The notes under the pieces were generated by a model. The model did no database searches. It had not been told where the DNA came from and worked only from the letters and a program-made list of their open reading frames with translations. A stretch of DNA of 64,000 bases from a bacterium (GTDB lineage Bacteria > Bacillota > Clostridia > Christensenellales > DTU072): positions 3,402 through 67,401 of the forward strand of contig CAVIQK010000001.1 in NCBI GenBank assembly GCA_963644945.1, read 5' to 3'. Of this stretch, positions 27,909-48,465 are shown piece after piece. Made by a program: the position numbers and the translations under genes. The number at the start of each line of letters is the position of its first letter. Positions within the stretch are counted from its first letter, which is position 1.

Positions 27909-27957
27909 TATATAAAAATTGATATAACAAATATAAAAAATAAGTATTATATATTAA

Positions 27958-27986
27958 TTGCAAGTCAAAAAGATAATTGATAAAAT
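27958..27986 (+). promoter_or_regulatory. Candidate promoter of the rex-headed gene string
   Basis: TTGCAA (27958-27963), 17-nt spacer, TAAAAT (27981-27986). AT-rich context, so weak evidence. Confidence 0.3.
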
Positions 27987-28022
27987 TATATCGATAAAAA
28001 AGGAACGATTGAGGAGAACGAA

Positions 28023-28631
28023 ATGGATATCCCAAAATCAGTCATCGCAAGACTCCCTTTGTATCTTCATTATTTGAGATCGGCAGATGCGAGAGATCGT
28101 GTCACCATATCTTCGTCCGCCATAGCGAAAGCCGTAAGGCTTGGCGAAGTTCAAGTAAGGAAGGATCTTGCAATGGTATCGGGAGAAGGAAAACCCAAAA
28201 TCGGTTACGTCACGGAGGAACTTACTCGTAGCATAATGGAAGTTCTCGGATGCGTGACGGAGAAGAAAGCGGTAATTGTCGGTGCGGGGCATTTAGGTTC
28301 TGCACTTTTGGTGTATAAAGGATTTTTAGAATACAATCTCAAAATAGTTGCGGCGTTTGACAGAGACGATCGCAAAGTCGGCACTATGGTTTACGGAAAA
28401 CCCATAAAAGGAATAGACGAACTTTCCGATTTTGTAAAAGCCGAAAACATTTTGATAGGGATAATAACCGTCCCCGAACAAGAGGCACAAAATATTTGCG
28501 ACCGTCTAGTGGGGGCAGGGATCAACACAATATGGAGTTTTGCGCCGATAAGGCTCGAAGTTCCCGAACATGTAAAACTAAAAGAGGAAAATATGGCGGC
28601 ATCTTTGTCCGCCCTAGCAGCGAGTATATAA
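28023..28631 (+). CDS. rex: Redox-sensing transcriptional repressor Rex
   Basis: 202 aa. N-terminal ARLPLYLHYL winged helix and a Rossmann VGAGHLGSAL. Confidence 0.85.
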   Translation: MDIPKSVIARLPLYLHYLRSADARDRVTISSSAIAKAVRLGEVQVRKDLAMVSGEGKPKIGYVTEELTRSIMEVLGCVTEKKAVIVGAGHLGSALLVYKGFLEYNLKIVAAFDRDDRKVGTMVYGKPIKGIDELSDFVKAENILIGIITVPEQEAQNICDRLVGAGINTIWSFAPIRLEVPEHVKLKEENMAASLSALAASI

Positions 28632-28633
28632 TT

Positions 28634-29383: not shown

Positions 29384-29397
29384 TAAGGAGAACAAAA

Positions 29398-29640
29398 ATG
29401 GTAAAATTGACGGTTTGTATAGGAAGTTCTTGCCACATAAAAGGTTCAAGACAAGTGGTAGAACAATTACAAAATTTAGTGGCAGAAAAAGGTTTGAAGG
29501 ACAAAGTCGAACTTACCGGTACGTTTTGCATGGGCACTTGTCAACAAGGCGTGTGCGTAACAGTTGATGACCAATTGTTTTCGGTAAGCCCCGAAACGAC
29601 CAAAGAGTTTTTTGAAACCAACGTAATGTCCAGAATATAA
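29398..29640 (+). CDS. Thioredoxin-like [2Fe-2S] ferredoxin (NuoE/HydC-type mini-domain), copy 1
   Basis: 80 aa. Cys pattern VCIGSSCH...FCMGTC (C-x4-C...C-x3-C). Confidence 0.65.
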   Translation: MVKLTVCIGSSCHIKGSRQVVEQLQNLVAEKGLKDKVELTGTFCMGTCQQGVCVTVDDQLFSVSPETTKEFFETNVMSRI

Positions 29641-29642
29641 CA

Positions 29643-29900
29643 ATGGTTGTCATTAAAGTTTGCGTGGGGAGTTCTTGTCACATAAAAGGCGCCCCCGGAG
29701 TAGTAGATCTTCTTGAAAAATACATTGACGACAACGGCATAAGAGACGAAGTCGAATTGACCGGAAGTTTTTGTGCGGGAAAATGCAACAGAAACGGTGT
29801 CACTATCACTGTTGACGACGATGTATATACAGGAATAACCAAGGAATCTTTTGGAGAATTCTTCAAAGAAAATATATTGAAAAGAGTAAAAGAATCATGA
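29643..29900 (+). CDS. Thioredoxin-like [2Fe-2S] ferredoxin, copy 2 (tandem paralog)
   Basis: 85 aa. VCVGSSCH...FCAGKC. Clear paralogy to copy 1 (VC.GSSCHIKG, VELTG.FC, the T(V/I)DD stretch). Confidence 0.65.
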   Translation: MVVIKVCVGSSCHIKGAPGVVDLLEKYIDDNGIRDEVELTGSFCAGKCNRNGVTITVDDDVYTGITKESFGEFFKENILKRVKES

Positions 29901-30841
29901 GAAAAATTACAATTATAGGCAGTGGAAAAGTCGGAGCGACAATAGCATATTCTCTAATTTGCAGAGAGATCGCCACCGATATAGTAATAATAGACGTCAA
30001 CGGCGAAAAAGCCCTTGGCGAAGCACTAGACATCAGACAAGGTCTTTCGTATGACGAGCCTTGTTCGGTCTATGCCGGAGGCTATCCCGAGGCGGTCGAT
30101 TCGGACATCGTCATCATAACATCGGGTATTGCCAGAAAACCCGACCAATCAAGACTTGACCTTATCAACACCAACATAAACATACAAAAGTCAATAATTC
30201 CCGAAATCACCAAATACGCTCCCAATGCGATTTATATTATGGTTTCCAACCCCGTTGACGTGTTGACATATACTTTTTGCAAATTGTCCGGTATCCCCGA
30301 AAATCACATCATCGGTTCCGGCACGATTATAGACACAGCAAGACTTAGAGCAAGACTCCAAGAATATACGGGACTTGACGCACGCAATATCAATGCTTAC
30401 GTTTTCGGCGAACACGGAGATTCTTCCTTTGTTCCTTGGTCCATTTCGGACATAACGGATATTCCCGTTACGGACTATTGCAACTCCGACGTGTTCAAAG
30501 ACTGCATACCTACCAAGATAAATATTCCCGAAATCGAAAAGTATATGAAGACATCCGGTTCGAGAGTAATTTCCAGAAAAGGCGCAACCTACTATGCAAT
30601 CGCATCGACCGTAAGTTATATTTGTAAAGCCATCCTCGGCAACACCAACACCGTCATGTCCGTATCGACAATGATGCATGGCGAATACGGTGTATCGGAT
30701 GTTTGCTTGTCCACACTAAATGTCATCGGCAAAAACGGTGTTCACGCCAAAGTCAACCCCGTACTTACCGACGAAGAAGTAGAAAAACTCCGCCACAGTG
30801 CCGACGTGTTGAAAAGCACGATCAAGGACCTTGGCATATAA
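29897..30841 (+). CDS. LDH-family NAD-dependent 2-hydroxyacid dehydrogenase; specificity residue predicts malate dehydrogenase
   Basis: 314 aa. IIGSGKVGAT, GTIIDTARLR and GEHGDS are LDH-like. The substrate loop reads SGIARKPDQSRLDL, with Arg where LDH has Gln102. Confidence 0.75.
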   Translation: MRKITIIGSGKVGATIAYSLICREIATDIVIIDVNGEKALGEALDIRQGLSYDEPCSVYAGGYPEAVDSDIVIITSGIARKPDQSRLDLINTNINIQKSIIPEITKYAPNAIYIMVSNPVDVLTYTFCKLSGIPENHIIGSGTIIDTARLRARLQEYTGLDARNINAYVFGEHGDSSFVPWSISDITDIPVTDYCNSDVFKDCIPTKINIPEIEKYMKTSGSRVISRKGATYYAIASTVSYICKAILGNTNTVMSVSTMMHGEYGVSDVCLSTLNVIGKNGVHAKVNPVLTDEEVEKLRHSADVLKSTIKDLGI

Positions 30842-30850
30842 AGGTTAGTT

Positions 30851-32524
30851 ATGGAATGTTTAACGCTTAAAAAATCCAACTGCAAAAACTGCTACAAATG
30901 TATCCGCCATTGTCCGGTAAAAAGCATACGTTTTTCCGGCAACCAAGCGCATATAATTGAGGACGAGTGTATTCTTTGCGGACAATGTTATGTCGTTTGC
31001 CCTCAAAACGCAAAAGAAATAACCAGTGAAGTAGAAAGAATAAAAGTTTTGATAGAAAATACCCCCACGGTTGTAGCCAGTCTTGCCCCCTCTTTTATCG
31101 CTCATTATAGAGGGAAAAGCCTTCTTGCAGTCAAAGAAGCGTTAAAAAAACTAGGGTTTGCAGATGCCGAAGAAACGGCAATCGGTGCAACTGCCGTCAA
31201 AAAAGAGTATGAGAGAATACTAAGAGAAGAAGACAGAGATATTTTGATCTCGTCTTGTTGCCACTCTGTCAACCTACTTATACAAAAATATTATCCGTCG
31301 GTTTTGCCTTGCCTTGCCGACGTTTTGTCCCCCATGCAAGCCCATGCGGAAGACATCAAAAGAAGAAATCCCGAAGCAAAAGTCGTCTTTATAGGACCAT
31401 GTATTGCCAAAAAAGACGAGGCGTCGCATTATGAAAACATCGTGGATGCGGTTTTGACTTTCGAGCAACTAGACGATTGGTTTAGAGATTACGGAATAAC
31501 TCTAGAAGATATTGCGGAAGACGGCGAAGAAGGTCGAGCAAGACTCTTCCCGACGACGGGCGGAATTATAGATACAATGACCGAAAAAATCGACGGTTAT
31601 GACTATATTGCAATCGACGGAGTAGAAAATTGCAAGTCGGTTTTGGAAGAAATCAAAAAAGGCAAAATACACAAGTGTTTTATCGAAATGTCTGCTTGTG
31701 TCGGTTCTTGCGTAGGCGGTCCCATAATGGAAAAGAAAGATCCGTCCCTCGTAGAAGACATAATCGCAGTTAGAAAATATGCCAAAAACAAAGATTTTTC
31801 GATAAGAGAAGTTAGCCCTATCGAAATAAAGAAGTTCTTTGTCCCAATAGAGAAAAAAACTCCGGAGCCATCCGAATACGAGATAGCAAGAGTTATGAGA
31901 GAGATGGGCAAAATCCGTCCCGAAGACGAATTGAATTGCGGATCGTGTGGCTACAATACATGTAGAGAAAAAGCAATAGCCATTCTAGAAGGCAAAGCCG
32001 AAATCTCAATGTGCCTTCCGTATCTAAAAGACAAAGCCGAAAGTTTTTCCGACTGCATCGTCAACAACACCCCCAACGGTCTTTTGGTTGTCAACGAAAA
32101 TCTCGAAGTACAACAAATCAACCGTTCTGCAATGAAGATTCTCAATATTCGTTCTGCATCCGACGTCATGGGTTGTCCCGTTGTGAGAGTCATCGATCCT
32201 CTTCCCTTTATGAATGTTTTGCGTACAAAACGTAGCATCAAAAACAAGAGAGTATATTTGGCAGAATATAAAAAATATGTTGACCAAACCATCGTGTACG
32301 ACCAAACCAACCAACTGCTAATAAGCATTATTTGTGACGTAACCGAAGAACAAAGCGAAAGAGAGAAAAAAGAAAGTATCAGCCGTCAAACGGTAGAGAT
32401 AGCCGACAAAGTCGTTGACAAACAAATGCGCATTGTCCAAGAAATAGCATCGCTTTTAGGCGAAACTGCGGCGGAAACCAAAATCGCCCTAACCAAACTC
32501 AAGGAGTCTATAGACAATGAATGA
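30851..32524 (+). CDS. Putative sensory [FeFe]-hydrogenase (HydS-like, group C): ferredoxin domain, H-domain, Cys4 FeS domain and PAS
   Basis: 557 aa. CKNCYKCIRHCP and CILCGQCYVVCP. H-cluster motif variants ISSCCHSV, IGPCIAKKDE, IEMSACVGSCVGGP. CGSCGYNTC...C. C-terminal PAS-like segment. Confidence 0.75.
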   Translation: MECLTLKKSNCKNCYKCIRHCPVKSIRFSGNQAHIIEDECILCGQCYVVCPQNAKEITSEVERIKVLIENTPTVVASLAPSFIAHYRGKSLLAVKEALKKLGFADAEETAIGATAVKKEYERILREEDRDILISSCCHSVNLLIQKYYPSVLPCLADVLSPMQAHAEDIKRRNPEAKVVFIGPCIAKKDEASHYENIVDAVLTFEQLDDWFRDYGITLEDIAEDGEEGRARLFPTTGGIIDTMTEKIDGYDYIAIDGVENCKSVLEEIKKGKIHKCFIEMSACVGSCVGGPIMEKKDPSLVEDIIAVRKYAKNKDFSIREVSPIEIKKFFVPIEKKTPEPSEYEIARVMREMGKIRPEDELNCGSCGYNTCREKAIAILEGKAEISMCLPYLKDKAESFSDCIVNNTPNGLLVVNENLEVQQINRSAMKILNIRSASDVMGCPVVRVIDPLPFMNVLRTKRSIKNKRVYLAEYKKYVDQTIVYDQTNQLLISIICDVTEEQSEREKKESISRQTVEIADKVVDKQMRIVQEIASLLGETAAETKIALTKLKESIDNE

Positions 32525-33689: not shown

Positions 33690-33712
33690 TAAAAATAAAA
33701 AGAGGCTAGTGT

Positions 33713-35140: not shown

Positions 35141-35154
35141 AAGTATTATATAAT
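35126..35154 (+). promoter_or_regulatory. Candidate internal promoter ahead of fumC
   Basis: TTGAAA (35126-35131), 17-nt spacer, TATAAT (35149-35154). It straddles the hydrogenase stop codon. Confidence 0.4.
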
Positions 35155-35188
35155 ATAATTTGGAACGAAAAATATTGGAGGTTTCGTA

Positions 35189-36568
35189 ATGGAATATCGT
35201 ATTGAAAAAGACACAATGGGCGAAGTTAGAGTCCCCGCAGACAAATATTGGGCAGCACAGACCGAAAGAAGTTTTGAAAACTTCAAAATCGGTATCGAAA
35301 AAATGCCTAGAGAAATCACTCACGCATTCGGCATTTTGAAAAAAGCCGCCGCTATTGCCAACTACAATCTCGGAAAACTCCCGAAAGAAAAAATGGATGC
35401 AATAGTTGCCGCTTGTGACGAAGTCATTTCCGGAAAACTCAACGATCATTTTCCTTTGGTCGTATGGCAAACAGGTAGCGGTACACAATCCAACATGAAT
35501 GCCAACGAAGTTATTGCCAATAGAGGCAACGAGATTGCCGGAGCAAAACTTCTCCACCCCAACGACGATATCAACAAGAGCCAAAGCTCCAACGATACAT
35601 TCCCTACGGCAATGCATATAGCCGCCGTTATCGCAATAGAAGATCATCTATTCCCTTCGATAGATAAACTTGTCGAAACGTTCAAAAGACTCGAACAAGA
35701 AAACGAAGGCATCGTCAAGAGTGGCAGAACCCACCTACAAGATGCTGTTCCGATTGCATTTTCACAAGAAATAAGCGGTTGGAGAGCAATGCTCGAAAAG
35801 ACCAAAGAACAATTAAAACTTTCTTTGTCGGGACTTAAAGAACTTGCCCTTGGCGGTACTGCTGTAGGAACAGGACTCAATGCTCCTATGGGATTTGACG
35901 AAGAAGTCGCCAAACAAGTAAGCGAAATTACAGGCAAAGATTTTGTCACTTCCGACAACAAATATCATGCACTTACCTCAAAAGATGCTCTCGTGTTCGC
36001 ACACGGTGCAATGAAAGCCCTTGCTTGCAACCTTATGAAAATAGCCAACGACGTAAGATGGCTTGCATCCGGTCCTCGTGACGGTCTCGGAGAAATCTTT
36101 ATTCCCGAAAACGAACCCGGTTCTTCCATCATGCCCGGCAAGGTCAACCCGACTCAATGCGAATCAATGACAATGGTAGCCGTTCAAGTTATGGCCAACG
36201 ACGTAGCCGTTTCTTTGGGCGCATCACAAGGCAATTTCGAACTCAACGTGTTTATGCCGGTAATCATCTACAATTTCTTGCAATCGGCAAAACTTCTCGC
36301 CGAAGGCATCGTGTCCTTCAACGATCACTGTGCGGTAGGCATCAAAGCCAACAAAGAAAAGATGGCACACAACCTCCACAATTCGTTGATGTTGGTCACC
36401 GCTCTCAATCCTTACATCGGATACGAAAATGCGGCAAAGACAGCCAAAAAAGCACATAAAGAAAATATTTCTCTAAAAGAAGCCTGTGTATCTCTCGGAT
36501 TCCTGACTGCCGAGAAGTTCGACGAAGTATTCAAACCCGAAGAGATGGCATATCCTAAAAAGAAGTAA
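35189..36568 (+). CDS. fumC: Class II fumarate hydratase
   Basis: 459 aa. [25 protein letters not shown] and the signature [11 protein letters not shown]. Confidence 0.9.
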
Positions 36569-36594
36569 TTTTTGTTTAAGTAAAGGAAAAGAAT

Positions 36595-37374
36595 ATGAAA
36601 ATTTGTTATTATCCGGGCTGTACCCTAAAAACCAAGGCAAAAGATCTCGACAAATGGGCGAGACTTTCTGCTCAAAAGTTAGGGGTAGAGATGGAAGAAA
36701 TTGAAAATTGGCAATGTTGCGGTGCCGTATATCCTACGGCACGTGACGAAATAGCCACGAAACTTTCCGCAATTAGAGCCCTTGACTATGCAAAACACAA
36801 CGGAGGCAAACTTTTGACACTCTGTTCTGCTTGTCACAACGTGATCAAACGTGTCAACGACGACATGCAAAACGATGACAACATCAAGATGAAAGCCAAC
36901 AATTATTTGGGACTCGAAGAAGCCTACCTTGGCGAAACCCAAGTAATTCACTATCTCGAAATGCTAAGAGACGTAGTAGGATTTGACAATCTAAAAAAGG
37001 CAGTAGTTAAGCCCATCGACAGAAAAATCGGTGCATTTTACGGTTGTTTATTGCTTCGTCCCGGCAAAGTCATGGCTTTTGACAATCCCGAAAATCCCCA
37101 AATTATGGAAGATTTTATCACCGCCATCGGTGGCACTCCCGTAAAATATGCTATGCGCAACGAGTGTTGCGGTGCTTACGTTGCATTGAGAACACAATCT
37201 CTTGCCGAAAAACGTAGCAACATAATTTTGGAAGATGCCAAAGCACACGGAGCAGAAGAAGTCGTTACGGCATGTCCTCTCTGCTTATACAATCTCAAAA
37301 ACAACGGGAACGTAGATATCAAAGTAAGTTACTTTACCGAACTTCTCGCAGAAGCGTTGGGGGTGAAAGAATAA
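36595..37374 (+). CDS. hdrB: Heterodisulfide reductase subunit B-like protein (two CCG domains)
   Basis: 259 aa. YYPGC...WQCCGA...LCSACHN and FYGC...NECCGA...ACPLCLYN. Confidence 0.8.
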   Translation: MKICYYPGCTLKTKAKDLDKWARLSAQKLGVEMEEIENWQCCGAVYPTARDEIATKLSAIRALDYAKHNGGKLLTLCSACHNVIKRVNDDMQNDDNIKMKANNYLGLEEAYLGETQVIHYLEMLRDVVGFDNLKKAVVKPIDRKIGAFYGCLLLRPGKVMAFDNPENPQIMEDFITAIGGTPVKYAMRNECCGAYVALRTQSLAEKRSNIILEDAKAHGAEEVVTACPLCLYNLKNNGNVDIKVSYFTELLAEALGVKE

Positions 37375-37760
37375 TGAGTAATCAAGAATATTTAGAAAAC
37401 ATTGTTCTTATAGCCGGCACAGACGTCAAAAAGTGCATGAAATGTGGCAAATGTTCCGGAAGATGCCCCGCATTTTCCGAAATGGACATAAAACCCCATC
37501 AATTCGTTTCGTATCTTGCCGAAAAGAAAATAGACAAATTGCTAAACAGCAAAGCAATTTGGAACTGCTTGTCTTGTATGGCTTGCGTGGAGAGATGCCC
37601 TAGAGGTGTCGCACCGCAAAGCGTAATCGAAGCAGTTAGAGATACAGTTGCCAGAATGCAAAACGGAAATGGACTAAAAGCCGAAGAAATTCCGTCAAAA
37701 GTGGACGAATTTATTCCGCAACAGCTCATCGTAAGCGCATTTAGAAAATATAACAAGTAA
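37374..37760 (+). CDS. hdrC: Heterodisulfide reductase subunit C-like (2x[4Fe-4S])
   Basis: ORF trimmed to MSNQEY, with TAATG overlap onto hdrB. CMKCGKCSGRCP and CLSCMACVERCP. 128 aa. Confidence 0.75.
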   Translation: MSNQEYLENIVLIAGTDVKKCMKCGKCSGRCPAFSEMDIKPHQFVSYLAEKKIDKLLNSKAIWNCLSCMACVERCPRGVAPQSVIEAVRDTVARMQNGNGLKAEEIPSKVDEFIPQQLIVSAFRKYNK

Positions 37761-37774
37761 AGAGAGAAAATAAT

Positions 37775-39766
37775 ATGCAAAAAATAGGTGTATTTATTTG
37801 TTGGTGCGGTACCAATATAGCCGCAACGGTCGATGTGGAAAGAGTCGCAAGGGAAATTAAAAAAGAGCCCGGAGTCGTCTATTCCGCAGATTATCAATAT
37901 ATGTGTTCGGAAAACGGACAACAATTGTTGAAAAAAGCCGTCAAAGAATATGGTCTTACAGGTATTGTAATAGGCTCTTGTTCTCCGAGAATGCACGAAG
38001 CGACATTTAGAAAAGCCGCCGAATCTGCGGGACTCAATCCCTTCATGGTAGAAATTGCCAACTTGAGAGAACAATGTTCTTGGATACATAAGGATAGAGA
38101 AGAAGCCACCGAAAAAGCCCTTGTTCTTGTCCGTACGGCAATCGCAAAAGTTAGACTCAATGCTCCTCTTACCGAAGGCGAAAGCCCCGTTACCAAGAGA
38201 GCCTTAGTAATCGGTGGCGGTATTGCGGGCATACAAGCAGCCCTAGATATAGCCGAAGCGGGATATCCCGTTGACATTGTCGAAAAGAATGCAACAATCG
38301 GCGGAAGAATGGCACAACTTGACAAGACTTTCCCGACTCTTGACTGCTCGGCATGTATCCTTACCCCTAAAATGGTCGATTGTGCACAAAGCGACAAGAT
38401 CGACATTTTGTCATATTCCGAAGTAGAAGAAGTCAAAGGATTTGTAGGAAAATTCTCTGTAAAAATCAAGAGAAAAGCCCGTTATGTTGACGAAACCAAA
38501 TGTACCGGTTGTAAAATCTGTATGGAAAAATGTCCGTCCAGAAAAGGACTCAACGAGTTCAACCAAAACTTAAACAACCGTACGGCAATTTATATTCCGT
38601 TTGCGCAAGCAATACCTAATGTAGCGGTTATCGATCCTACGCAGTGCATAAAACTTCGTACCGGAAAGTGCGGAATTTGTCAAAAATTCTGCGGAGCGGG
38701 TGCAATAAATTACGAAATGAAAGATGAATTTATCGAGAGAGAATACGGCGCAATAGTCGTTGCGACAGGATTTAGACCGATTGCTCTCGACAATTTCAAC
38801 GAGTTCGGCTACAACGACAATAAAGACGTCATTACGTCACTAGAACTCGAAAGACTTATGAATGCCGCAGGTCCTACCAACGGAGTTCTTCTCCGCCCGT
38901 CCGACGGCACGCACCCCAAAGTAATTACGTTTATACAATGTGTCGGATCAAGAGACGTATCCGGATGCGGAAAGCCCTATTGCTCCAAAATATGCTGTAT
39001 GTACACCGCAAAACATGCAATGCTTATTAGAGAAAAATACCCCGACACCGAAGTGCATGTCTTCTATATAGACATACGTACCCCCGGCAAGAACTACGAC
39101 GAATTTTATCGTCGTGCCGTCGAACAATACGGTGTTGACTATATAAAAGGAATGGTCGGCAAAGTGTATGAAGAGAACGGAAAACTCATGGTACAAGGAT
39201 CCAATTTGCTTGAAAACGAGCAAATCACAATTCCTTCCGATCTAGTAGTTTTGGCAACGGCAATAGAACCGGAGCCGTCCGTAAGAAAGATAGCCACCTT
39301 ACTTACCGCAAGCATAGACACCAACAACTTCCTCAACGAGTCCCACCCGAAACTTCGTCCGGTAGAAAGTCCTACCGCAGGCGTGTTCCTTGCAGGTGTT
39401 TGCCAAGGACCTAAAGATATTCCGGAAACAGTTTCACAAGCATCGGCTTGTGCCGCTAAGGTTTTGGGACTTTTGGCAAAAGACAAATTGAAGACCAACC
39501 CTTGTGTTGCAAGTCCCAACGAGTCAATGTGCAACGGTTGTTCACAATGTGCCAATGTTTGTGCATACGGCGCAATTACATATATAGATAAAGAATTCCG
39601 TCTAGGCGGAGGAAAAACCGAAACAAGAAGAGTCGCATCCGTCAACCATGCAGTATGTCAAGGTTGTGGAGCATGTACCGTAGCATGCCCGTCGGGCGCT
39701 ATGGATTTGTCGGGATTCTCGTCTAAACAGATTATGTCGGAGGTCGAAGCAATATGCAAGAGATAG
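37775..39766 (+). CDS. hdrA: Heterodisulfide reductase subunit A-like flavoprotein (FAD plus multiple [4Fe-4S])
   Basis: 663 aa. KIGVFICWCGTNIA, VIGGGIAGIQAALD, CTGCKICMEKCP, CGICQKFC, CNGCSQCANVC, CQGCGACTVACP. Confidence 0.85.
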   Translation: MQKIGVFICWCGTNIAATVDVERVAREIKKEPGVVYSADYQYMCSENGQQLLKKAVKEYGLTGIVIGSCSPRMHEATFRKAAESAGLNPFMVEIANLREQCSWIHKDREEATEKALVLVRTAIAKVRLNAPLTEGESPVTKRALVIGGGIAGIQAALDIAEAGYPVDIVEKNATIGGRMAQLDKTFPTLDCSACILTPKMVDCAQSDKIDILSYSEVEEVKGFVGKFSVKIKRKARYVDETKCTGCKICMEKCPSRKGLNEFNQNLNNRTAIYIPFAQAIPNVAVIDPTQCIKLRTGKCGICQKFCGAGAINYEMKDEFIEREYGAIVVATGFRPIALDNFNEFGYNDNKDVITSLELERLMNAAGPTNGVLLRPSDGTHPKVITFIQCVGSRDVSGCGKPYCSKICCMYTAKHAMLIREKYPDTEVHVFYIDIRTPGKNYDEFYRRAVEQYGVDYIKGMVGKVYEENGKLMVQGSNLLENEQITIPSDLVVLATAIEPEPSVRKIATLLTASIDTNNFLNESHPKLRPVESPTAGVFLAGVCQGPKDIPETVSQASACAAKVLGLLAKDKLKTNPCVASPNESMCNGCSQCANVCAYGAITYIDKEFRLGGGKTETRRVASVNHAVCQGCGACTVACPSGAMDLSGFSSKQIMSEVEAICKR

Positions 39767-40206
39767 AGAAAAACGAAGGTAATTATACACCTAATATAGT
39801 TGCATTTTGTTGCAACTGGTGTTCGTATGCGGGAGCCGACCTTGCCGGATCGTCAAGACTTTCTTATCCTGCCAACGTAAAAATTGTAAGAGTACCTTGC
39901 TCATGTAGAGTCAACCCCATGTTTATACTAAAAGCCTTCCAAAGAGGCGCAGACGGTGTAATTTTGTGTGGATGCCACCCCGGAGATTGCCACTATGTCA
40001 CCGGCAACTACTACACGAGAAGAAGAATGACCTTGCTTTTCAGTTTTCTAGATTACCTAGGAATTGAAAAAGAACGTACCAGAGTAGAATGGGTTTCCGC
40101 CGCCGAAGGTGCGAAATTCTCGGCAGTTATGAATGATTTTGTCAAACAAGTTACCGAACTTGGCGAAAACAAGAGACTCCAAGATTTGAGAGTTAAGGAG
40201 AAGTAA
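39754..40206 (+). CDS. mvhD: MvhD/FlxD-like hydrogenase iron-sulfur (delta) subunit
   Basis: 150 aa. IVAFCCNWCSYAGADLAG...VPCSCRV...CGCHPGDCHY. 13-nt overlap with hdrA. Confidence 0.8.
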   Translation: MQEIEKNEGNYTPNIVAFCCNWCSYAGADLAGSSRLSYPANVKIVRVPCSCRVNPMFILKAFQRGADGVILCGCHPGDCHYVTGNYYTRRRMTLLFSFLDYLGIEKERTRVEWVSAAEGAKFSAVMNDFVKQVTELGENKRLQDLRVKEK

Positions 40207-40207
40207 A

Positions 40208-41194
40208 ATGAACGAACTCGAAAAATTGATGGTAAAAAGAGCAACAGAACTTCTCAATTCGGGCGAAGTCAAGAGAGTCGTAGGTTGGACGAAAGGCGAA
40301 TTTATTCACGATCCGTCACCTGCATCATTCGAAACCGAAGAGGACTTAAAGAATTTCGTGTACAACGATTTTTGTGGTCCCAACCTTTCCAAATATCTCA
40401 TTGATATATCGAAAAAAGAAGGGAAAACCGCAGTATTTTTGAAGCCTTGCGACACATACAGTTTCAACGAACTTTTGAAAGAGCATAGAGTAAAACGTGA
40501 AAATATTTTGGTAATAGGTATAGAGTGTAGAGGAAAACTCGACAACTATAAACTTGAAAAGAAAGGCATCACCGGAATTACCGAAGAAGAATACAACGAC
40601 AACAAAGTCACTCTCAAAACTCTTTACGGCGAAGAATTTTGCCTCGAAAAGGGCGAAGTTTTGCTTGATAAGTGCCTTGAATGCAAAGGCAAAACCCACG
40701 TTGTCGCAGACGAAAAAATTATTATCCACGAAGTGGTAGAAGAAAACAACGATAGATTTTCTAAGGTAAGAGAGTTAGAAAAAATGACTCCTACCGAAAG
40801 ATACGAATTTTGGCAATCGCAACTTTCCAAATGCATTCGTTGCAATGCTTGTAGAAATGTTTGCCCCGCATGTTCGTGCGTGAAATGCGTGTTCGACAAT
40901 CCTCAATCGGGAGTCGCCGCCAAAGCCAACGACGTAAGTTTTGAAGAGCAACTCTACCATATAATAAGAGCCTTCCACGTATCCGGCAGATGTACGGATT
41001 GCGGAGAGTGTTCGAGAGTATGCCCCGAGAGAATACCGCTTCATCTTCTCAACAGAAAATTTATCAAAGACATCAACACTATCTATGGCGAATTCCAAGC
41101 CGGTGAAGTGGCAGAAGGAAGTTATCCTTTGACCTCATATACCGAAAAAGATATTGAGCCAAACAACGTGTTTAGTGCAACGGAGGGCAAATAA
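40208..41194 (+). CDS. Iron-sulfur protein, FlxB/C-like (4Fe-4S dicluster)
   Basis: 328 aa. CIRCNACRNVCPAC and CTDCGECSRVCPE. 1-nt gap after mvhD. Confidence 0.6.
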   Translation: MNELEKLMVKRATELLNSGEVKRVVGWTKGEFIHDPSPASFETEEDLKNFVYNDFCGPNLSKYLIDISKKEGKTAVFLKPCDTYSFNELLKEHRVKRENILVIGIECRGKLDNYKLEKKGITGITEEEYNDNKVTLKTLYGEEFCLEKGEVLLDKCLECKGKTHVVADEKIIIHEVVEENNDRFSKVRELEKMTPTERYEFWQSQLSKCIRCNACRNVCPACSCVKCVFDNPQSGVAAKANDVSFEEQLYHIIRAFHVSGRCTDCGECSRVCPERIPLHLLNRKFIKDINTIYGEFQAGEVAEGSYPLTSYTEKDIEPNNVFSATEGK

Positions 41195-42214
41195 ATGATT
41201 AAAATTAAAAGAGAAAATCTCACCAACTTCTACAAAGCCCTCAAAGAAAAAATGCCCCTATACATACCGCAAAATATTGCCGGTATGGTGAATTATGCCC
41301 CGTTCGAAGAGAATTCCGTAGTCGATATCGACACATTAAAAACGGTAAAAAGTCCCAAAGACGTTTTCTTCCCCCAAAGCGAAAACATGATGAAATTCCG
41401 CTTGGAAGGTAAAACCATATCAATAGAGGACATAAGAAAAGAAAGAGAACCCTTTTTGGTGTTCGGTGTACGTGCATGCGATTTGAAAGCCTTTGAAGTT
41501 TTGGATCACGTCTTTTTACAAGAGCCGGTTGACACATATTATAAGGAAAGAAGAGAAAAAGGTGTCATCTTTACTTTGGCATGCGGAAAACCCGAAGAAA
41601 GTTGTTTCTGCAACGTATTTGGTATCGATGCATCCGCTCCGCAAGGAGATGCGACATGCTATCTTGACGACAATTATCTCTATGTTCGTCCCAATACCGA
41701 CAAAGGCAAAGCCGTACTTTCAGGAATAGACGGAGAAACTTGCGACGAAAAGGAAGTATCTCCTATCGTAGAAAAGACCAAAGCGACAATCGAAAAACTT
41801 CCGTTTTCGCATCTTGATCTATCTTATTTCAAACCCGAAAATCTCAACGAGATATTCGAACTTCCCGATTGGCAACAGTTGTCACAAGCATGTATCGGTT
41901 GCGGAACATGTACTTTTGTATGCCCGACATGTCAATGTTTTGATATAAGAGACTTCAAAACACAAGACGGCGTAATAAGATTCCGCTGTTGGGATTCTTG
42001 CATGTATTCGGACTTCACGCAGATGGCGGCAGCCAATCCTCGTACAACTCAAATGCAAAGATTCCGTCAAAGATTTATGCATAAACTCGTATATTTCCCG
42101 TCGCAATACGGCATGTATTCGTGTGTAGGTTGCGGAAGATGCGTCAACAAATGTCCGCAACATCTCAATATTGTAAAAGTTATCAAAAAAATAGGGGGAA
42201 AGAAAAATGGTTAA
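41195..42214 (+). CDS. Iron-sulfur protein, AsrA / sulfhydrogenase-beta-like (FlxB/C-like)
   Basis: 339 aa. CIGCGTCTFVCPTCQC and CVGCGRCVNKCP. No gap after the previous gene. Confidence 0.6.
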   Translation: MIKIKRENLTNFYKALKEKMPLYIPQNIAGMVNYAPFEENSVVDIDTLKTVKSPKDVFFPQSENMMKFRLEGKTISIEDIRKEREPFLVFGVRACDLKAFEVLDHVFLQEPVDTYYKERREKGVIFTLACGKPEESCFCNVFGIDASAPQGDATCYLDDNYLYVRPNTDKGKAVLSGIDGETCDEKEVSPIVEKTKATIEKLPFSHLDLSYFKPENLNEIFELPDWQQLSQACIGCGTCTFVCPTCQCFDIRDFKTQDGVIRFRCWDSCMYSDFTQMAAANPRTTQMQRFRQRFMHKLVYFPSQYGMYSCVGCGRCVNKCPQHLNIVKVIKKIGGKKNG

Positions 42215-43034
42215 TGAGAACCTTATCCCTAATATCGGAGTAATAACCGATGTAAGAAAAGACACCGCAGACGTCAAAACATTTAGAGTGGTGGGACTTG
42301 ACGGCAAGAAGTTGTTCGAACACATGCCCGGCCAATGTGCGATGGTTTCCATCCCCGGAGTAGGCGAGTGTATGTTCTCGATTACGTCGTCGCCTACCAA
42401 CAAAGAATTTATGGAATTTTCCATCAAAAAATGCGGTTGTGTGACAGAAATAATCCATTCTTTGGAAGAAGGACAACACATTACGGTTAGAGGACCGTAT
42501 GGCAAGAATTTCCCCGTAGAAGGAGATTTCAAAGGAAAAGATTTGTTGTTCATCGCAGGTGGAATCGGTCTTGCACCTCTTCGTAGCGTCATAAATTATG
42601 TTCGCCATTATAGAGAGAACTACGGCAAAGTAGTAGTCGTGTACGGTGCAAGAAGCAAAGACGACCTTGTCGATATAGAAGAAATCCAAAAAGAGTGGAT
42701 GAACGAAAAGAATTTTGAAGTTTATTTGACGATAGACCGTCCGCAAGAAGGATGGGACGGACACGTAGGATTTGTCCCTGCATACGTCAAAGAACTAGGA
42801 CTTGATCCCACAATGACGGCAGTACTTTGCGGACCGCCGATAATGATCAAATTTACTTTGGCAGGTCTTCTAGAACTCGGATTCAAGAAAGAAAGAGTCT
42901 ATACCACTTTGGAACTTCGCATGAAGTGCGGTATAGGAAAGTGCGGAAGATGCAATGTAGGCGACAAGTTCGTATGTAAAGACGGCCCCGTTTTTAGAAT
43001 GGACCAATTAGACGAATTACCCGATGAATATTGA
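42207..43034 (+). CDS. FNR-fold FAD/NAD(P)H oxidoreductase subunit with C-terminal [2Fe-2S] (FlxA / AsrB / PyrK-like)
   Basis: 275 aa. MFSITSSP FAD motif, LLFIAGGIGLAPLRS NAD motif, CGIGKCGRC...C cluster motif. Confidence 0.75.
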   Translation: MVNENLIPNIGVITDVRKDTADVKTFRVVGLDGKKLFEHMPGQCAMVSIPGVGECMFSITSSPTNKEFMEFSIKKCGCVTEIIHSLEEGQHITVRGPYGKNFPVEGDFKGKDLLFIAGGIGLAPLRSVINYVRHYRENYGKVVVVYGARSKDDLVDIEEIQKEWMNEKNFEVYLTIDRPQEGWDGHVGFVPAYVKELGLDPTMTAVLCGPPIMIKFTLAGLLELGFKKERVYTTLELRMKCGIGKCGRCNVGDKFVCKDGPVFRMDQLDELPDEY

Positions 43035-43054
43035 TAAGTAGTAGGAGTATAAAA

Positions 43055-43729
43055 ATGGAAAAGAAAGTCAACGTTTATTTCTTTGGAAAACATTATGAGG
43101 TTCCGGAAAGCCTTACCATCATGAAGGCAATGGAATATGCCGGATACCAATTGATAAGAGGATGCGGTTGCCGTAACGGTTTTTGCGGAGCGTGTGCAAC
43201 TTTTTATCGTATAAAAGGTCAACAAGCATTAAGAACATGTCTTGCTTGCCAACAACAAGTAGAAGAAGGAATGTATGTAGCAACACTACCTTCGTTCCCG
43301 CTTGTAAAACAAGTCTATGACATCAACAAAATCAAACCGACCGAGCAAATTATGATGCAATTATATCCCGAAATATATAGTTGTATAGGTTGCAATGCTT
43401 GTACCAAGGCTTGCCCTCAAGGACTCAATGTTATGCAATACATCGCTTATGCACAACGTGGTGAATACGAAAAATGTGCAGAAGCAAGTTTTGACTGCGT
43501 AATGTGCGGACTTTGTTCGTCAAGATGCCCTGCGGGTATTTCTCATCCGCAAGTCGCAGAACTCGCAAGAAGATTGTACGGCAAATATATTGCCCCCGAA
43601 TGTAAACACCTTGAAAAGAGAGTCGCAGAAATAGAAAACGGCGAACTTGAAAAGATGATGGAAGATATTATGGGAAAACCGATATCCGAAATGAAAGAAC
43701 TTTACAACACAAGACAAATCGAAAAATAG
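43055..43729 (+). CDS. Succinate dehydrogenase/fumarate reductase iron-sulfur subunit-like protein
   Basis: Trimmed to MEKKVNVYFFG, with AGGAG SD. CRNGFCGAC...C [2Fe-2S], then CIGCNACTKACP and CVMCGLCSSRCP. 224 aa. Confidence 0.7.
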   Translation: MEKKVNVYFFGKHYEVPESLTIMKAMEYAGYQLIRGCGCRNGFCGACATFYRIKGQQALRTCLACQQQVEEGMYVATLPSFPLVKQVYDINKIKPTEQIMMQLYPEIYSCIGCNACTKACPQGLNVMQYIAYAQRGEYEKCAEASFDCVMCGLCSSRCPAGISHPQVAELARRLYGKYIAPECKHLEKRVAEIENGELEKMMEDIMGKPISEMKELYNTRQIEK

Positions 43730-43738
43730 GAGGGCAGT

Positions 43739-45340
43739 ATGTATAATTATACCGAAGAACAATTAGTTTCGATGAAAAAAGTCGAGGAAACAAGACAAGA
43801 AAGAGTCAACAACTTATATCCTCGTATGACTGCCGACGAAAAAGATGCAGTATTAAAAGAAAATCACCCCGACTATATAGATAGCGCATACGAAAGTCTA
43901 AAAGTCGGTCCCAACAAAGGCGAAAAAGTCCTTCACGAACTTGCCGACCTCTTGCAAGGCAAGTCAAGAGTTTCGGGCCTTGACATAGATTTAGAGCATC
44001 CCGCATACGACGTTGACGTTTTGGTTATCGGCGGTGGCGGAGCAGGTGCATCTACGGCAATTACCGCTCACAAAAACGGTGCCAATGTCATGATGGTCAC
44101 AAAACTCAGAATAGGCGATGCCAACACAATGATGGCAGAAGGCGGTATCCAAGCGGCAGACAAAGAGAACGATTCCCCCGCAATTCACTATCTTGATGCG
44201 TTCGGAGGCGGACACTTTGCCGCAAAACCCGAACTTCTCAAAAAACTCGTCTATGAAGCACCCGATGCAATCAAATGGCTATCCGATCTCGGAGTTATGT
44301 TCGATAAAGATAAAGACGGCAACATGGTCACCACACACGGTGGCGGAACGTCCAGAAAGAGAATGCACGCATGCAAGGACTATTCCGGCGCAGAAATAAT
44401 GCGTACACTAAGAGACGAAGTTTTCAACAGAGAAATCCCCGTAGTTGACTTTACGTCCGCAATCGAAATCATAAAAGACGACAAGGGCAATGCTGCGGGA
44501 GCAGTGCTTCTCAACATGGAAACAGGCAAAATAGAAGTAGCCAAAGCCAAGACCGTCGTCATCGCAACAGGCGGAGCAGGAAGACTTCATTATCAAGGAT
44601 TCCCGACATCCAACCACTACGGAGCAACGGCCGACGGACTCGTTCTTGCTTATAGAGCAGGCGCAAAACTTCTTTATGCAGACACTTTGCAATACCATCC
44701 TACCGGTGTTGCCGAACCTACACAAATATTCGGAGCCCTCGTCACCGAAAAGGTCCGTTCTCTCGGAGCCCAACTCGTCAACAAAGAAGGCAAAGCCTTC
44801 GTGTATTCACTTGAAACAAGAGACGTCACAGCATCTTCTATCATAAGAGAATGCAAACAAAGAAAGAATTCCGTAAAAACCACCGACGGCGAAGGCGTAT
44901 GGCTCGACACTCCTATGATTGATATGATCGGAGGCGAAGGCACTATCGAAAAACGTATCCCTGCAATGTACCGCATGTTCGGGAAATACGGCATCGACAT
45001 CAGAAAAGAGCCTATTCTCGTATATCCTACACTTCACTACCAAAACGGCGGTATTGACATCAGTGCCAACGGTGAAACGACGGCAGTCAAAAACTTGTTC
45101 GTAGCAGGCGAAGCAGTCGGAGGCATACACGGCAGAAACAGACTTATGGGCAACAGCCTTCTCGACATCATCGTATTTGGCAGAAATGCCGGTCATTTTG
45201 CGGCGGAAAGAGCAAAAGAAACCGTTGTCGGCAAACTTTCTCTCGATCACGTAAAATCATTTGAAAAAGAATTGAAAGACGCAGGACTCAATCCTACCAA
45301 ACTTTCACCTCAACTTCTTCCCGATTACAGAAGAAAATAA
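43739..45340 (+). CDS. Fumarate reductase/succinate dehydrogenase flavoprotein-like subunit (non-covalent FAD predicted)
   Basis: 533 aa. VIGGGGAGAS, LQYHPTG, SLETRD, LHYQNGGI, GRNRLMGNSLLD. Asn replaces the flavinylation His. Confidence 0.7.
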   Translation: MYNYTEEQLVSMKKVEETRQERVNNLYPRMTADEKDAVLKENHPDYIDSAYESLKVGPNKGEKVLHELADLLQGKSRVSGLDIDLEHPAYDVDVLVIGGGGAGASTAITAHKNGANVMMVTKLRIGDANTMMAEGGIQAADKENDSPAIHYLDAFGGGHFAAKPELLKKLVYEAPDAIKWLSDLGVMFDKDKDGNMVTTHGGGTSRKRMHACKDYSGAEIMRTLRDEVFNREIPVVDFTSAIEIIKDDKGNAAGAVLLNMETGKIEVAKAKTVVIATGGAGRLHYQGFPTSNHYGATADGLVLAYRAGAKLLYADTLQYHPTGVAEPTQIFGALVTEKVRSLGAQLVNKEGKAFVYSLETRDVTASSIIRECKQRKNSVKTTDGEGVWLDTPMIDMIGGEGTIEKRIPAMYRMFGKYGIDIRKEPILVYPTLHYQNGGIDISANGETTAVKNLFVAGEAVGGIHGRNRLMGNSLLDIIVFGRNAGHFAAERAKETVVGKLSLDHVKSFEKELKDAGLNPTKLSPQLLPDYRRK

Positions 45341-45351
45341 TAGGAGACAAT

Positions 45352-46821
45352 ATGGAAGAATATAAAGAAAACGGTGTCGAAGAAGAATCTATCGCAACCG
45401 AGGATGAAGTAGTGTTAGAAGACGGCGAAGCCTCTGTTCAAAAGGCAAACGCCCCCAAAACCCCTAAAAAGTGGGTAAAATGGGTGGTGCTTGGCATTGT
45501 AGCGGCACTTGTCATAGGTGTTGTTGCATGGTGCATATACAGCGCAACACAAGGTAAAGGCATCGACGGAGTGCTTGGTATTTCTACGGTTACGGCACTT
45601 CTATTCGGTGTGTTCCTTGTAGCCGCCCTCGGATACCTTCTCGGTAGCGTCACGATAAAAGGTGTCAACCTCGGCACTGCCGGAGTATTTTTGGTAGCCA
45701 TCGCATTTGGATGTATTTGCACGATAAAAGGACTAAAAGACGTACCGGTACTCGGTAAGTTCTATATAGAAGGTTCCTCGTCGGCACTATATAAATATTA
45801 CGGAAGCATCGTCCAAAACGTAGGACTTGTATTGTTCGTTGCATCTGTCGGGTTTATCGCAGGCCCCAACTTCTTCAAGAACTTGAAGAAAAATGCAAAG
45901 TCTTATGTAGTACTCGGAGCAATCATCATCGCAACGGGCGCCCTTCTTTCCGTCCTCTTTACACTGGCACTGAAAGGAACTCTTGGCGACGTAGCCAAAG
46001 AATTCTCGGTCGGAATTTTGTCGGGTGCATTGACAACTACCCCGGGATATTCGGCAGCGCTAGAAGCAAGTAGCACAGACGGAGCCATGATAACTCTCGG
46101 ACATGCTATTGCATATCCGTTCGGAGTAGTAGGTGTTGTTTTGTTCGTACAATTAGTACCTAAATTTATGAAAGCCGACATGGAAAAAGAAAGAGCCCTT
46201 CTAAAAATAGACGGTGCCGAACTCAAAGAGAAGAAAGAAGGTTTGTTTGTTTGCGATCCCTTCGGACTCATGCCTTTCGGCCTTGCAGTCGTAGCAGGAC
46301 TCATCTTGGGAGCCATCAAAATACCGCTTACCGGTGAAGGTTACAACGGAACATGTTTCTCGCTAGGAACAACCGGCGGTGTGCTTATTATGTGCCTAAT
46401 CTTCGGACACTTCGGCCACATGGGGAAACTTTCCCTTGAAATTCCCGAAAAAACCGCCAAGGTTTTCCGTGAATTCGGTCTTATGATGTTCTTGATAGGA
46501 GCAGGTGTTGCCGGCGGCGCACAACTCGTCAACCAAATCAACAATTACGGTGGTCTTGTAATCTTGTGGGGATTCTTGGGCGGTGCCATTATGACACTCG
46601 TTCCTATGATAGTAGGTTTCTTCTTCGCAAAATACATTTTGAAGATAAGCCTTCTCAACAACCTTGGCTCGATCACCGGCGGAATGACATCGACTCCCGC
46701 CCTCGGTACCCTTATTTCTACCGCAGGGACAGACGACGTCGCATCTGCCTATGCATCAACTTATCCGATTGCGCTCGTTTTGATTGTACTTGCGTCGCAA
46801 TTTATAGTAACATTAATGTAG
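45352..46821 (+). CDS. AAE (aspartate:alanine exchanger / YidE-YbjL-SucE) family transporter, short form
   Basis: 489 aa. Two homologous membrane halves (GVNLGTAGVFLVAIAFG and FSLGTTGGVLIMCLIFG) joined by about 30 aa. No RCK_C domains. Acidic N-terminal tail of about 40 aa. Confidence 0.6.
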   Translation: MEEYKENGVEEESIATEDEVVLEDGEASVQKANAPKTPKKWVKWVVLGIVAALVIGVVAWCIYSATQGKGIDGVLGISTVTALLFGVFLVAALGYLLGSVTIKGVNLGTAGVFLVAIAFGCICTIKGLKDVPVLGKFYIEGSSSALYKYYGSIVQNVGLVLFVASVGFIAGPNFFKNLKKNAKSYVVLGAIIIATGALLSVLFTLALKGTLGDVAKEFSVGILSGALTTTPGYSAALEASSTDGAMITLGHAIAYPFGVVGVVLFVQLVPKFMKADMEKERALLKIDGAELKEKKEGLFVCDPFGLMPFGLAVVAGLILGAIKIPLTGEGYNGTCFSLGTTGGVLIMCLIFGHFGHMGKLSLEIPEKTAKVFREFGLMMFLIGAGVAGGAQLVNQINNYGGLVILWGFLGGAIMTLVPMIVGFFFAKYILKISLLNNLGSITGGMTSTPALGTLISTAGTDDVASAYASTYPIALVLIVLASQFIVTLM

Positions 46822-46860: not shown

Positions 46861-48465
46861 ATGACAAAAATCGATTTAACGAAATATGGCATTAAAAACG
46901 TCACCGAAGTAGTTTACAACCCGTCATACGAAATGCTTTTCGAAGAAGAAACCAGAAAAGATCTTACCGGTTATGAAAAGGGACAAGTTAGCGAACTCGG
47001 TGCAGTCAATGTTATGACAGGTATTTATACCGGACGTTCTCCTAAGGATAAATTTATCGTCATGGACGAAAACTCCAAAGACACCGTTTGGTGGACTTCG
47101 GACGAATTCAAAAACGACAACCATCCCGCAAGCAAAGAAACATGGCAAGCAGTCAAAGACATTGCAGTCAAAGAACTCAGTGGCAAGAGATTGTTCGTCG
47201 TAGATGCATTTTGCGGTGCCAACAAAGACACTCGTATGGCAGTTAGATTCATCGTCGAAGTCGCATGGCAAGCACACTTCATCAAGAATATGTTTATCGT
47301 GCCTACACAAGAAGAACTCGAAAACTTCGAACCCGACTTCGTTGTTTACAATGCATCGAAAGCCAAAGTCGAAAATTACAAAGAACTCGGTCTCAATTCC
47401 GAAACAGCCGTTGTCTTCAATATCACATCGAGAGAACAAGTTATAATCAACACTTGGTACGGTGGAGAAATGAAGAAAGGTATGTTCTCAATGATGAACT
47501 ACTATTTGCCCCTAAAAGGCATTGCATCAATGCACTGCTCGGCAAATACCGATATGGACGGAAAGAACACCGCAATATTCTTCGGTCTTTCCGGAACAGG
47601 CAAAACCACCCTTTCCACAGATCCTAAACGTCTCCTAATCGGCGACGACGAACACGGCTGGGACGACAACGGAGTATTCAACTTTGAAGGTGGCTGCTAC
47701 GCAAAAGTTATCAACCTCGACAAAGATTCCGAACCCGATATTTACAACGCAATCAGAAGAAATGCCCTTCTCGAAAACGTAACTCTTGACGAAAACGGCA
47801 AAATCGATTTTGCAGACAAGAGCGTTACGGAAAACACTCGTGTTTCCTATCCTATCCAACACATCGAAAAGATTGTCAGACCTGTTTCCTCCGCTCCCGC
47901 AGCGAAAAACGTCATATTCCTTTCTGCCGATGCATTCGGAGTGCTTCCTCCTGTCTCAATCTTGACTCCTGAACAAACTCAATACTACTTCCTCTCCGGA
48001 TTTACCGCAAAACTTGCAGGAACCGAAAGAGGTATAACCGAGCCTACTCCTACATTCTCCGCATGTTTCGGACAAGCCTTCCTAGAACTTCATCCTACAA
48101 AATATGCAGAAGAACTCGTCAAGAAAATGCAAAAGAGCGGAGCCAAAGCATACTTGGTCAACACCGGTTGGAACGGCACCGGAAAACGTATCTCCATCAA
48201 AGATACAAGAGGAATTATCGATGCAATTTTGAGTGGCGACATCAACAATGCCCCCACCAAGAAAATCCCCTATTTTGACTTTGAAGTACCTACAAAACTC
48301 AATGGCGTAGATTCAGGCATCCTCGATCCTAGAGACACCTACAAAGATGCAAAAGATTGGGAAGTCAAGGCTCTTGACCTTGCAGGAAGATTTACAAAGA
48401 ACTTTGCAAAATATGCAACCAACGAAGCAGGCAAAGCACTTGTAAAAGCAGGTCCTAAAGCATAA
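46861..48465 (+). CDS. pckA: Phosphoenolpyruvate carboxykinase (ATP)
   Basis: 534 aa. [29 protein letters not shown], typical C-terminus. Confidence 0.9.

Follow-up and report, generated by a model that had tools for sequence, protein, structure and literature searches.

An LDH-like Arg102 protein encoded in one gene string with fumC and pckA is predicted to be the malate dehydrogenase of a clostridial succinate branch

The gene mdh (29897..30841, + strand) of the window, by which we mean the whole 64,000-nucleotide stretch analysed, very probably encodes an NADH-dependent L-malate dehydrogenase (MDH) that would convert oxaloacetate to L-malate for a branch from PEP to succinate. Its 314-residue product, hereafter the query, resembles an L-lactate dehydrogenase (LDH) in Pfam, NCBIfam and PDB alignments and has arginine at the specificity position 102. 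MDH function is the most likely one in view of this arginine, of synteny and of the pattern of paralogues; substrate preference, cofactor and physiological role are predictions from the sequence. An earlier note on this DNA had called the protein probably a malate dehydrogenase, and we concur, since Arg102 is invariant in its clade, LDH paralogues are co-resident in 10 relatives and the gene is linked to fumC and hdr. Against this reading stand the LDH-type pocket formed by Thr246 and Ile250 and the scores of the family models, those for L-LDH lying above their cut-offs and those for MDH below. Enzymes of this kind have already been published from other clostridia; for the clade of the query, our literature searches found no paper on an assayed member.

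Specificity residues and automatic naming

Glutamine versus arginine at position 102 is the classic discriminator between LDH and MDH. In the query this position is held by Arg80, whose codon lies at 30134..30136 (+ strand; translation of 30113-30163 and PDB alignments) within the stretch DSDIVIITSGIARKPDQSRLDL. HMMER alignments run through the mobile loop without gaps against the solved L-LDHs, placing Arg80 against Gln102 in both 4m1q and 2zqy and against an arginine in 1y6j, and the spacing between Arg80 and Arg86 (position 109) is that of LDHs. The residue before K-P is thus arginine and not glutamine, as the earlier note had read it, and no shift of the loop moves it away from position 102. 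That note had also described the protein as LDH-like from the strings GEHGDS and GTIIDTARLR. Both occur, together with DSDIVIITSGIARKPDQSRLDL, in the translation of 29897-30841, and the Pfam domains PF00056 (Ldh_1_N, 132.3 bits) and PF02866 (Ldh_1_C, 103.1 bits) are found above their gathering scores. With these two domains and a complete catalytic set of four residues (Arg86 at position 109, Asp146 at 168, Arg149 at 171 and His173 at 195), the query belongs to the LDH/MDH superfamily.

The signature positions 68/102/199/246/250, taken from Iorio et al. 2022 (PMC9486893), read H/Q/(D,E)/T/I in canonical LDHs and (D,Q)/R/M/(A,S)/P in MalDH type 3 (PMC9486893). The query reads Q/R/S/T/I (Gln48, Arg80, Ser177, Thr231, Ile235): it lacks the Gln102 of canonical L-LDHs as well as their His68 and Asp/Glu199, and agrees with them at Thr231 (246) and Ile235 (250) alone. 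Chance or a sequencing quirk does not explain Arg80, because arginine stands at this position in 120/120 nearest homologues (64-100% identity). The other positions are nearly as constant among these 120, with Gln68 in 119, Thr246 in 120 and Asp53 in 119, so that the clade signature is Q/R/(S,G,A)/T/(I,V). An AlphaFold2 model of the query, built from an alignment of 24 sequences, is unfit for active-site geometry because its confidence is low (mean pLDDT 67, with the catalytic domain, residues 143-229, below 50).

Automatic pipelines name such a protein LDH because it scores above the curated cut-offs of the NCBIfam L-LDH models (NF000824, 344.8 against 339; TIGR01771, 324.9 against 303.55), while the MDH models miss theirs (NF004863, 269.9 against 283; TIGR01763, 204.6 against 351.85). 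The named public homologues, from Clostridiales, Clostridia and Candidatus Borkfalkiaceae MAGs, are indeed called 'L-lactate dehydrogenase', as had been anticipated for this gene in the earlier note. Where this name is trusted in reconstructing the metabolism of gut and rumen communities, lactate production will be predicted from genomes that encode a PEP-to-succinate branch, and the branch will be listed as missing its malate dehydrogenase. The misnaming would be mended by a dedicated HMM or by a plain rule that combines Arg102 and Gln68; the case is correct and useful for annotation, and will not surprise specialists.

A succinate gene string around mdh

The gene string opens on the + strand with rex (28023..28631; Pfam Put_DNA-bind_N and CoA_binding), coding for a Rex-type redox-sensing repressor, followed by an APH-fold kinase gene, two thioredoxin-like [2Fe-2S] genes and mdh. 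The [2Fe-2S] gene immediately upstream (29643..29900, +) is probably co-translated with mdh in one operon, because its stop overlaps the mdh start in an ATGA. On the 3' side, in order and on the same strand, come genes for a PAS-containing HydS-like sensory hydrogenase, a PP2C phosphatase and an [FeFe]-hydrogenase, and then fumC (35189..36568, +), a class II fumarate hydratase (malate to fumarate) scoring 741.8 bits to TIGR00979 (cut-off 664.75). Beyond fumC lie hdrB, hdrC, hdrA, mvhD/flxD, flxC, flxB, flxA, frdB and a TfrA-like frdA (36595..45340, +), which NCBIfam matches identify as a predicted soluble Hdr/Flx-linked fumarate reductase that would take fumarate to succinate. The string continues with an AspT/YidE/YbjL-family transporter (45352..46821, +; TIGR01625, 136.9 bits), a candidate succinate exporter, and with pckA (46861..48465, +), an ATP-dependent PEP carboxykinase (NF006819, 980.8 bits; TIGR00224, 820.8 bits).

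Mechanistically, PckA would supply oxaloacetate from PEP, the query would reduce it to malate with NADH, and malate would pass through FumC to the fumarate reductase encoded in the same string; the outcome would be a PEP-to-succinate fermentation branch that re-oxidises NADH. Hydride transfer would follow the LDH/MDH scheme with His173 (195), Asp146 (168), Arg149 (171) and Arg86 (109). Once the mobile loop is closed, Arg80 (102) would pair with the C4 carboxylate of oxaloacetate, a pairing that would favour this substrate over pyruvate, and Asp33 (53) would confer specificity for NAD(H) rather than NADP(H).

The earlier note had proposed that the gene supplies the missing oxaloacetate-to-malate step between pckA and fumC. 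As a metabolic step the proposal is supported by the sequence analysis, with mdh on the same strand and in the same string and with no alternative LDH/MDH-superfamily gene, Mqo or malic enzyme; physically, the gene is not between the two, lying 4.3 kb upstream of fumC with the HydS, PP2C and hydrogenase genes in the interval. The assembly (1.41 Mb in 45 contigs, 95% complete) holds one Ldh_1_N gene, mdh itself, and tblastn of the genome, for which MalDH type 3 proteins and canonical LDHs served as queries, found no further locus. The same 95%-complete genome gave no Mqo, no PF00390 (malic enzyme) match and no 2-Hacid_dh match above cut-off. It does encode one Ldh_2-family protein (PF02615, 381.9 bits; G000:C4:80643-81677), which could also reduce oxaloacetate and is the sole other candidate for this step. 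This protein lies below every NCBIfam equivalog cut-off, its best match being the L-sulfolactate dehydrogenase model (253 bits, cut-off 500), and its gene is flanked by comEC and an inorganic pyrophosphatase gene, neighbours that offer no metabolic context.

Regulatory signals were also searched for. The Rex operator TTGTKAANNNNTTMACAA, with up to 2 mismatches allowed, gave a single match, at 16116, a position remote from the operon; this is no more than chance level, and the operator search thus gives no evidence for direct Rex control of the mdh gene string. A promoter and terminator scan of 27700-36700 returned the same counts as shuffles, which makes it uninformative on operon boundaries.

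Conservation of the association in relatives

Some 60 loci were compared from Clostridia, Lachnospiraceae and Treponema, and in all except three the gene adjoins fumC, hdrB or the HydS/HydA module of the same operon. In the 300-genome Clostridia sample, the mdh homologue is immediately followed by fumC in 28 of the 29 best loci. On metagenome contigs whose proteins are 67-68% identical to the query, fumC and the whole hdr-flx-frd block begin 11-19 nt 3' of the gene, and the genes upstream are unrelated. Two loci (L022, L024) have pckA directly upstream, and another (L041) has a Rex homologue upstream. Neither fumC nor hdr was seen beside the gene at L043, L060 and L061, the last having only a weak HydS/HydA-like match downstream. 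Named records give the same picture: fumC, hdrB or the HydS/PP2C module adjoins in 29/29 loci of the Arg102 type (L068-L095, L108), from sources that include Schaedlerella arabinosiphila DSM 106076, Hominisplanchenecus faecis, Dorea, Faecalimonas, Marvinbryantia and Ruminococcus as well as Christensenellaceae and Treponema/Spirochaetaceae MAGs. By comparison, fumC, hdr, frd or pckA neighbours occur in 0/19 of the Gln102 or Pro102 loci with flanks. This association of Arg102 with fumC and hdr is descriptive, the genomes being related and an independent-contrast test having a single independent pair on the tree to work with.

Matches in the 300 Clostridia genomes fall into two identity classes, at least 50% and at most 47%, and 58 of these species-level genomes hold a homologue of the first class; Lachnospiraceae isolates and Treponema MAGs also carry the Arg102-type gene, whose family is a common one. 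In each of 10 genomes checked that hold both types, the second copy is a canonical LDH (H/Q/E/T/(I,V)), 38-43% identical. Both types are therefore maintained, side by side in these 10 genomes, as different enzymes.

Phylogenetic position

A maximum-likelihood tree (69 rows, LG+C20+F+G4) was built with MalDH type 3 as its root, represented by three loci (L008-L010) above the TIGR01763 cut-off, which read (E/Q)RMAP with GGHGD. The canonical Gln102 rows (n=25) form one clade (96/86) that excludes the query clade, and the latter is a separate group of 15 rows, all with Arg102 (99/98). The backbone is a polytomy among canonical LDH, the query clade, a 1Y6J-like Arg102 clade (whose member P0131 scores 335 bits to 1y6j) and several other Arg102 lineages. 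Constraining this clade to lie within a crown LDH subgroup, which was picked after the tree had been seen, lowers the likelihood of the query placement by 17.0 lnL units (AU p = 0.032), so that nesting in crown LDH is disfavoured, with weak evidence from the AU test. A joint clade of the query and 1Y6J types is not rejected (AU p = 0.28).

The phylogeny against LDH and MDH sets, proposed in the earlier note as a check, accordingly places the query outside the Gln102 clade; a grouping with 1Y6J-type MDH is neither recovered, the two appearing as separate clades, nor rejected. The same note's description of an LDH scaffold carrying Arg102 fits the overall likeness to LDH. As an account of its evolution, a scaffold changed by Q102R fits less well: the clade branches off outside canonical LDH, and its residues at 68 and 199 are different too. 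From its residues and its place in the tree, the query is probably better described as one Arg102 lineage beside canonical LDH than as an LDH changed by Q102R. Such lineages match the published picture of an 'intermediate group' that gave rise to canonical LDH (PMC9486893, PMC10583557); the query clade adds one further natural example next to canonical LDH, the principle having been published already.

Two other placements were rejected. A converted crown-group LDH, arising by a single Q102R reversal, conflicts with the differences at 68 and 199 and with the disfavoured nesting. Identity as a MalDH type 3 fails on the TIGR01763 score (204.6 against 351.85) and on the features R102/M199/A-S246/P250 and GGHGD, among which only Arg102 agrees.

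Alternative functions

A pyruvate-reducing role is possible because mdh is the sole LDH-like gene of the genome. In the main rival reading, the query would be a bispecific or promiscuous 2-oxoacid reductase, turning over oxaloacetate and pyruvate at physiological rates as a single NADH valve with no separate LDH. We regard this as improbable: a Bacillus LDH engineered to carry Q102R is said to prefer oxaloacetate strongly with the same Thr246/Ile250 pocket, relatives often keep a separate canonical LDH and hence argue for specialisation, and the operon context is purely that of the succinate branch. The idea draws on the mixed signature, MalDH-like at Gln68 and Arg102 and LDH-like at Thr246 and Ile250, and on a genome with neither a canonical LDH nor a 2-Hacid_dh match above cut-off. 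Some Thr246 MalDHs of the 'intermediate group' recognise both oxaloacetate and pyruvate (PMC9486893), and two C. cellulolyticum paralogues overlap in LDH and MDH activity (PMC3268733).

A related reading, somewhat less improbable yet still unlikely, takes the Q68/R102/(S,G)199/T246/I250 clade as an independent lineage at the LDH/MalDH boundary, whose members would be MDHs with LDH-style allostery or would use oxaloacetate and pyruvate alike. It arises because the LDH-type pocket is accompanied by the full LDH fructose-1,6-bisphosphate site (Arg173, His188, Tyr190) in 107/120 homologues. Specialists deem Thr246 and Ile250 unfavourable for oxaloacetate, and neither LDH-style allostery nor real dual use has been reported by them for the intermediate-group MalDHs (PMC9486893). 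The query itself has Asn188 in place of His188 and may, judging from this substitution, be a de-regulated variant.

That the query is a true L-lactate dehydrogenase in which Arg102 is tolerated seems very improbable to us, although its L-LDH HMM scores exceed the curated cut-offs, its best PDB matches are LDHs with similar scores (4m1q, 257.6; 1y6j, 256.4) and its GEHGDS, Thr246 and Ile250 are LDH-like. Moreover, ldh genes are typical Rex targets, and rex heads the gene string. Nevertheless, Arg102 does not vary within the clade, the residues at 68 and 199 depart from canonical LDH as well, and Gln102 is the residue of those canonical LDHs that have been characterised to date (PMC10583557). 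Co-resident canonical paralogues in relatives, the near-universal fumC/hdr/frd linkage and a position outside the canonical clade (96/86), where crown nesting costs 17 lnL units (AU p = 0.03), all point away from it.

We give hardly any credence to the query acting on another 2-oxo-dicarboxylate or 2-oxoacid, such as 2-oxoglutarate or sulfopyruvate, with the Ldh_2 protein converting oxaloacetate to malate. The Ldh_2 family (PF02615) does contain archaeal enzymes with MDH activity, and the genome has one such protein (381.9 bits, with the sulfolactate model at 253, below 500). Yet its gene, flanked by the pyrophosphatase gene and comEC, lacks metabolic context, and it is the Arg102 gene, not Ldh_2, that is conserved beside fumC/hdr/frd/pckA across families and phyla.

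Comparison with known enzymes

The closest functional precedent for the MDH assignment is Ccel_0137 of Ruminiclostridium (C.) cellulolyticum, shown by knock-out and extract assay to be the primary NADH MDH (Li et al. 2012, PMC3268733). It had first been predicted to be an L-LDH and has Arg81 at the Gln102 position; Cthe_0345 of Acetivibrio thermocellus is named as its orthologue (PMC3268733). The C. thermocellum chain 1Y6J, deposited as 'L-lactate dehydrogenase', is probably Cthe_0345; it has served in the literature as a counterpart for malate dehydrogenase (PMC3293032) and ranks second among the PDB matches of the query (256.4 bits with Arg102, against 257.6 for 4m1q with Gln102). Superfamily, length, GEHGD, Thr246 and Ile250 are common to these enzymes and the query, which likewise combines Arg102 with a GEHGD LDH-like sequence: Arg81 and Arg80 both fall at position 102, and annotation names the query type L-LDH, as it first did Ccel_0137. 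They differ in signature (H68/R102/Q199 in the 1Y6J type, Q68/R102/S-G199 in the query clade) and in the tree, where the 1Y6J-like clade represented by P0131 is separate from the query clade (99/98). The partners differ as well: the Ccel_0137/Cthe_0345 type pairs with an NADP malic enzyme in the malate shunt, whereas the query is tied to a succinate operon of fumC, Hdr-Flx and fumarate reductase. The block from fumC to the exporter in the window is an analogue of the 'succinate operon' of P. thermosuccinogenes, composed of fumarate hydratase, Flx-Hdr, fumarate reductase and a putative exporter (PMC7282089).

Canonical bacterial L-LDHs (TIGR01771) are about 40-47% identical to the query, which scores above the cut-off of their HMM, and have GEHGD, Thr246, Ile250, Arg173 and Tyr190 in common with it. 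The query departs from them by Gln102 to Arg, His68 to Gln, Asp/Glu199 to Ser and His188 to Asn, by its position outside their clade and by its genomic context in a succinate pathway. A laboratory precedent exists in the Q102R change of Wilks et al. in 1988, which reportedly made Bacillus stearothermophilus LDH an efficient and specific MDH. Because of this mutant, which has Thr246, Ile250, a GEHGD pocket and Arg102 just as the query does, an LDH-type pocket appears able to serve an efficient and specific MDH. The mutant is nonetheless one change in a true LDH (His68, Glu199), whereas the query clade has other residues at 68 and 199 too and does not fall within the crown.

The tetrameric MalDH type 3 (TIGR01763; for instance in Bacillus and Chloroflexus) has Arg102, Arg109, Asp168, Arg171 and His195 as the query does, with Gln or Glu at position 68 where the query has Gln. 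It has GGHGD, Met199, Ala/Ser246 and Pro250 against GEHGD, Ser199, Thr246 and Ile250 in the query. MalDHs of the 'intermediate group', such as Archaeoglobus fulgidus 2X0I and Ignicoccus islandicus 6QSS, have a mixed signature that combines Arg102 with Thr246, as the query does. The branch of the query lies outside the canonical Gln102 LDHs and a long way from MalDH type 3, on a backbone that is a polytomy. The Thr246 members described from this group have His68 and Pro250, whereas the query clade has Gln68 and Ile/Val250. The A. fulgidus structure 2X0I is printed as '2XOI' in PMC9486893.

Lactate route and probable main end product

In the genome carrying the window (G000, 1.41 Mb, 95% complete), no canonical (Gln102-type) L-lactate dehydrogenase, malic enzyme or Mqo was found, nor did any protein match the 2-Hacid_dh family above the cut-off. 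Judged from its gene content, the organism is without an evident conventional lactate route, and succinate looks like its main reduced organic end product.

The sole Ldh_2-family (PF02615) dehydrogenase of this genome, a protein of 370 amino acids, is encoded at positions 80643-81677 of contig C4 (1480-2592 in locus L006), between an inorganic pyrophosphatase gene on one side and comEC on the other. It reached no NCBIfam equivalog cut-off, its top match being L-sulfolactate dehydrogenase with 253 bits against a cut-off of 500.

Variation among the LDH-like proteins

In LDH numbering, Arg173, His188 and Tyr190, residues of the LDH fructose-1,6-bisphosphate site, are retained in 107 of the 120 nearest homologues of the predicted malate dehydrogenase (mdh, window 29897-30841, forward strand). 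The window's own protein and 12 close relatives in the same alignment (n=120) carry Asn188, which corresponds to Asn166 of the former (codon at window 30392-30394).

Of 130 LDH-like rows (representatives P0121-P0270), 16 carry a residue other than Gln or Arg at position 102: Pro, Glu, Asn, Ser, Lys, Leu, Met or Ala. Small supported groups are formed by several of these proteins, which presumably act on substrates other than pyruvate and oxaloacetate.

A second Arg102 group, from Eubacterium sp. MAGs and Ruminococcaceae UMGS98 (L096:2501-3445, L098:2501-3442 and L099:2501-3442), is only 41-42% identical to the mdh type and forms a long branch in the tree. Its members have Arg at 102, yet His68, Glu199, Thr246 and Ile250 make up the full canonical LDH signature. 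The gene is directly followed by fumC-hdrB in L096 and L098, and the group may have arisen when an LDH was independently recruited as an MDH to the same succinate operon.

Gene neighbourhoods of mdh in relatives

In loci from Lachnospiraceae and Ornithomonoglobus (L075-L079, L082-L088, L090-L093 and L108), hdrB-hdrA comes immediately after mdh without an intervening fumC, so that fumC has to be located elsewhere unless a different fumarase serves instead.

The mdh-fumC-hdrB block also occurs, with 54-61% identity, in MAGs of Treponema, Treponemataceae and Spirochaetaceae (L070-L072, L080 and L081). Since the tree places these spirochaete copies of mdh among Clostridia sequences, their position suggests that the succinate operon has moved between the two phyla.

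Finally, mdh sits inside a HydS/PP2C/hydrogenase module of variable gene order (window 28646-35140; L058, L068 and L094), reading kinase-Fdx-Fdx-mdh-HydS-PP2C(-HydA) in the window and L068, and HydS-PP2C-mdh-HydA(-fumC) in L058 and L094. That this putative H2-sensing module is repeatedly linked to the succinate branch is a hint that the pathway may be under H2-dependent control.
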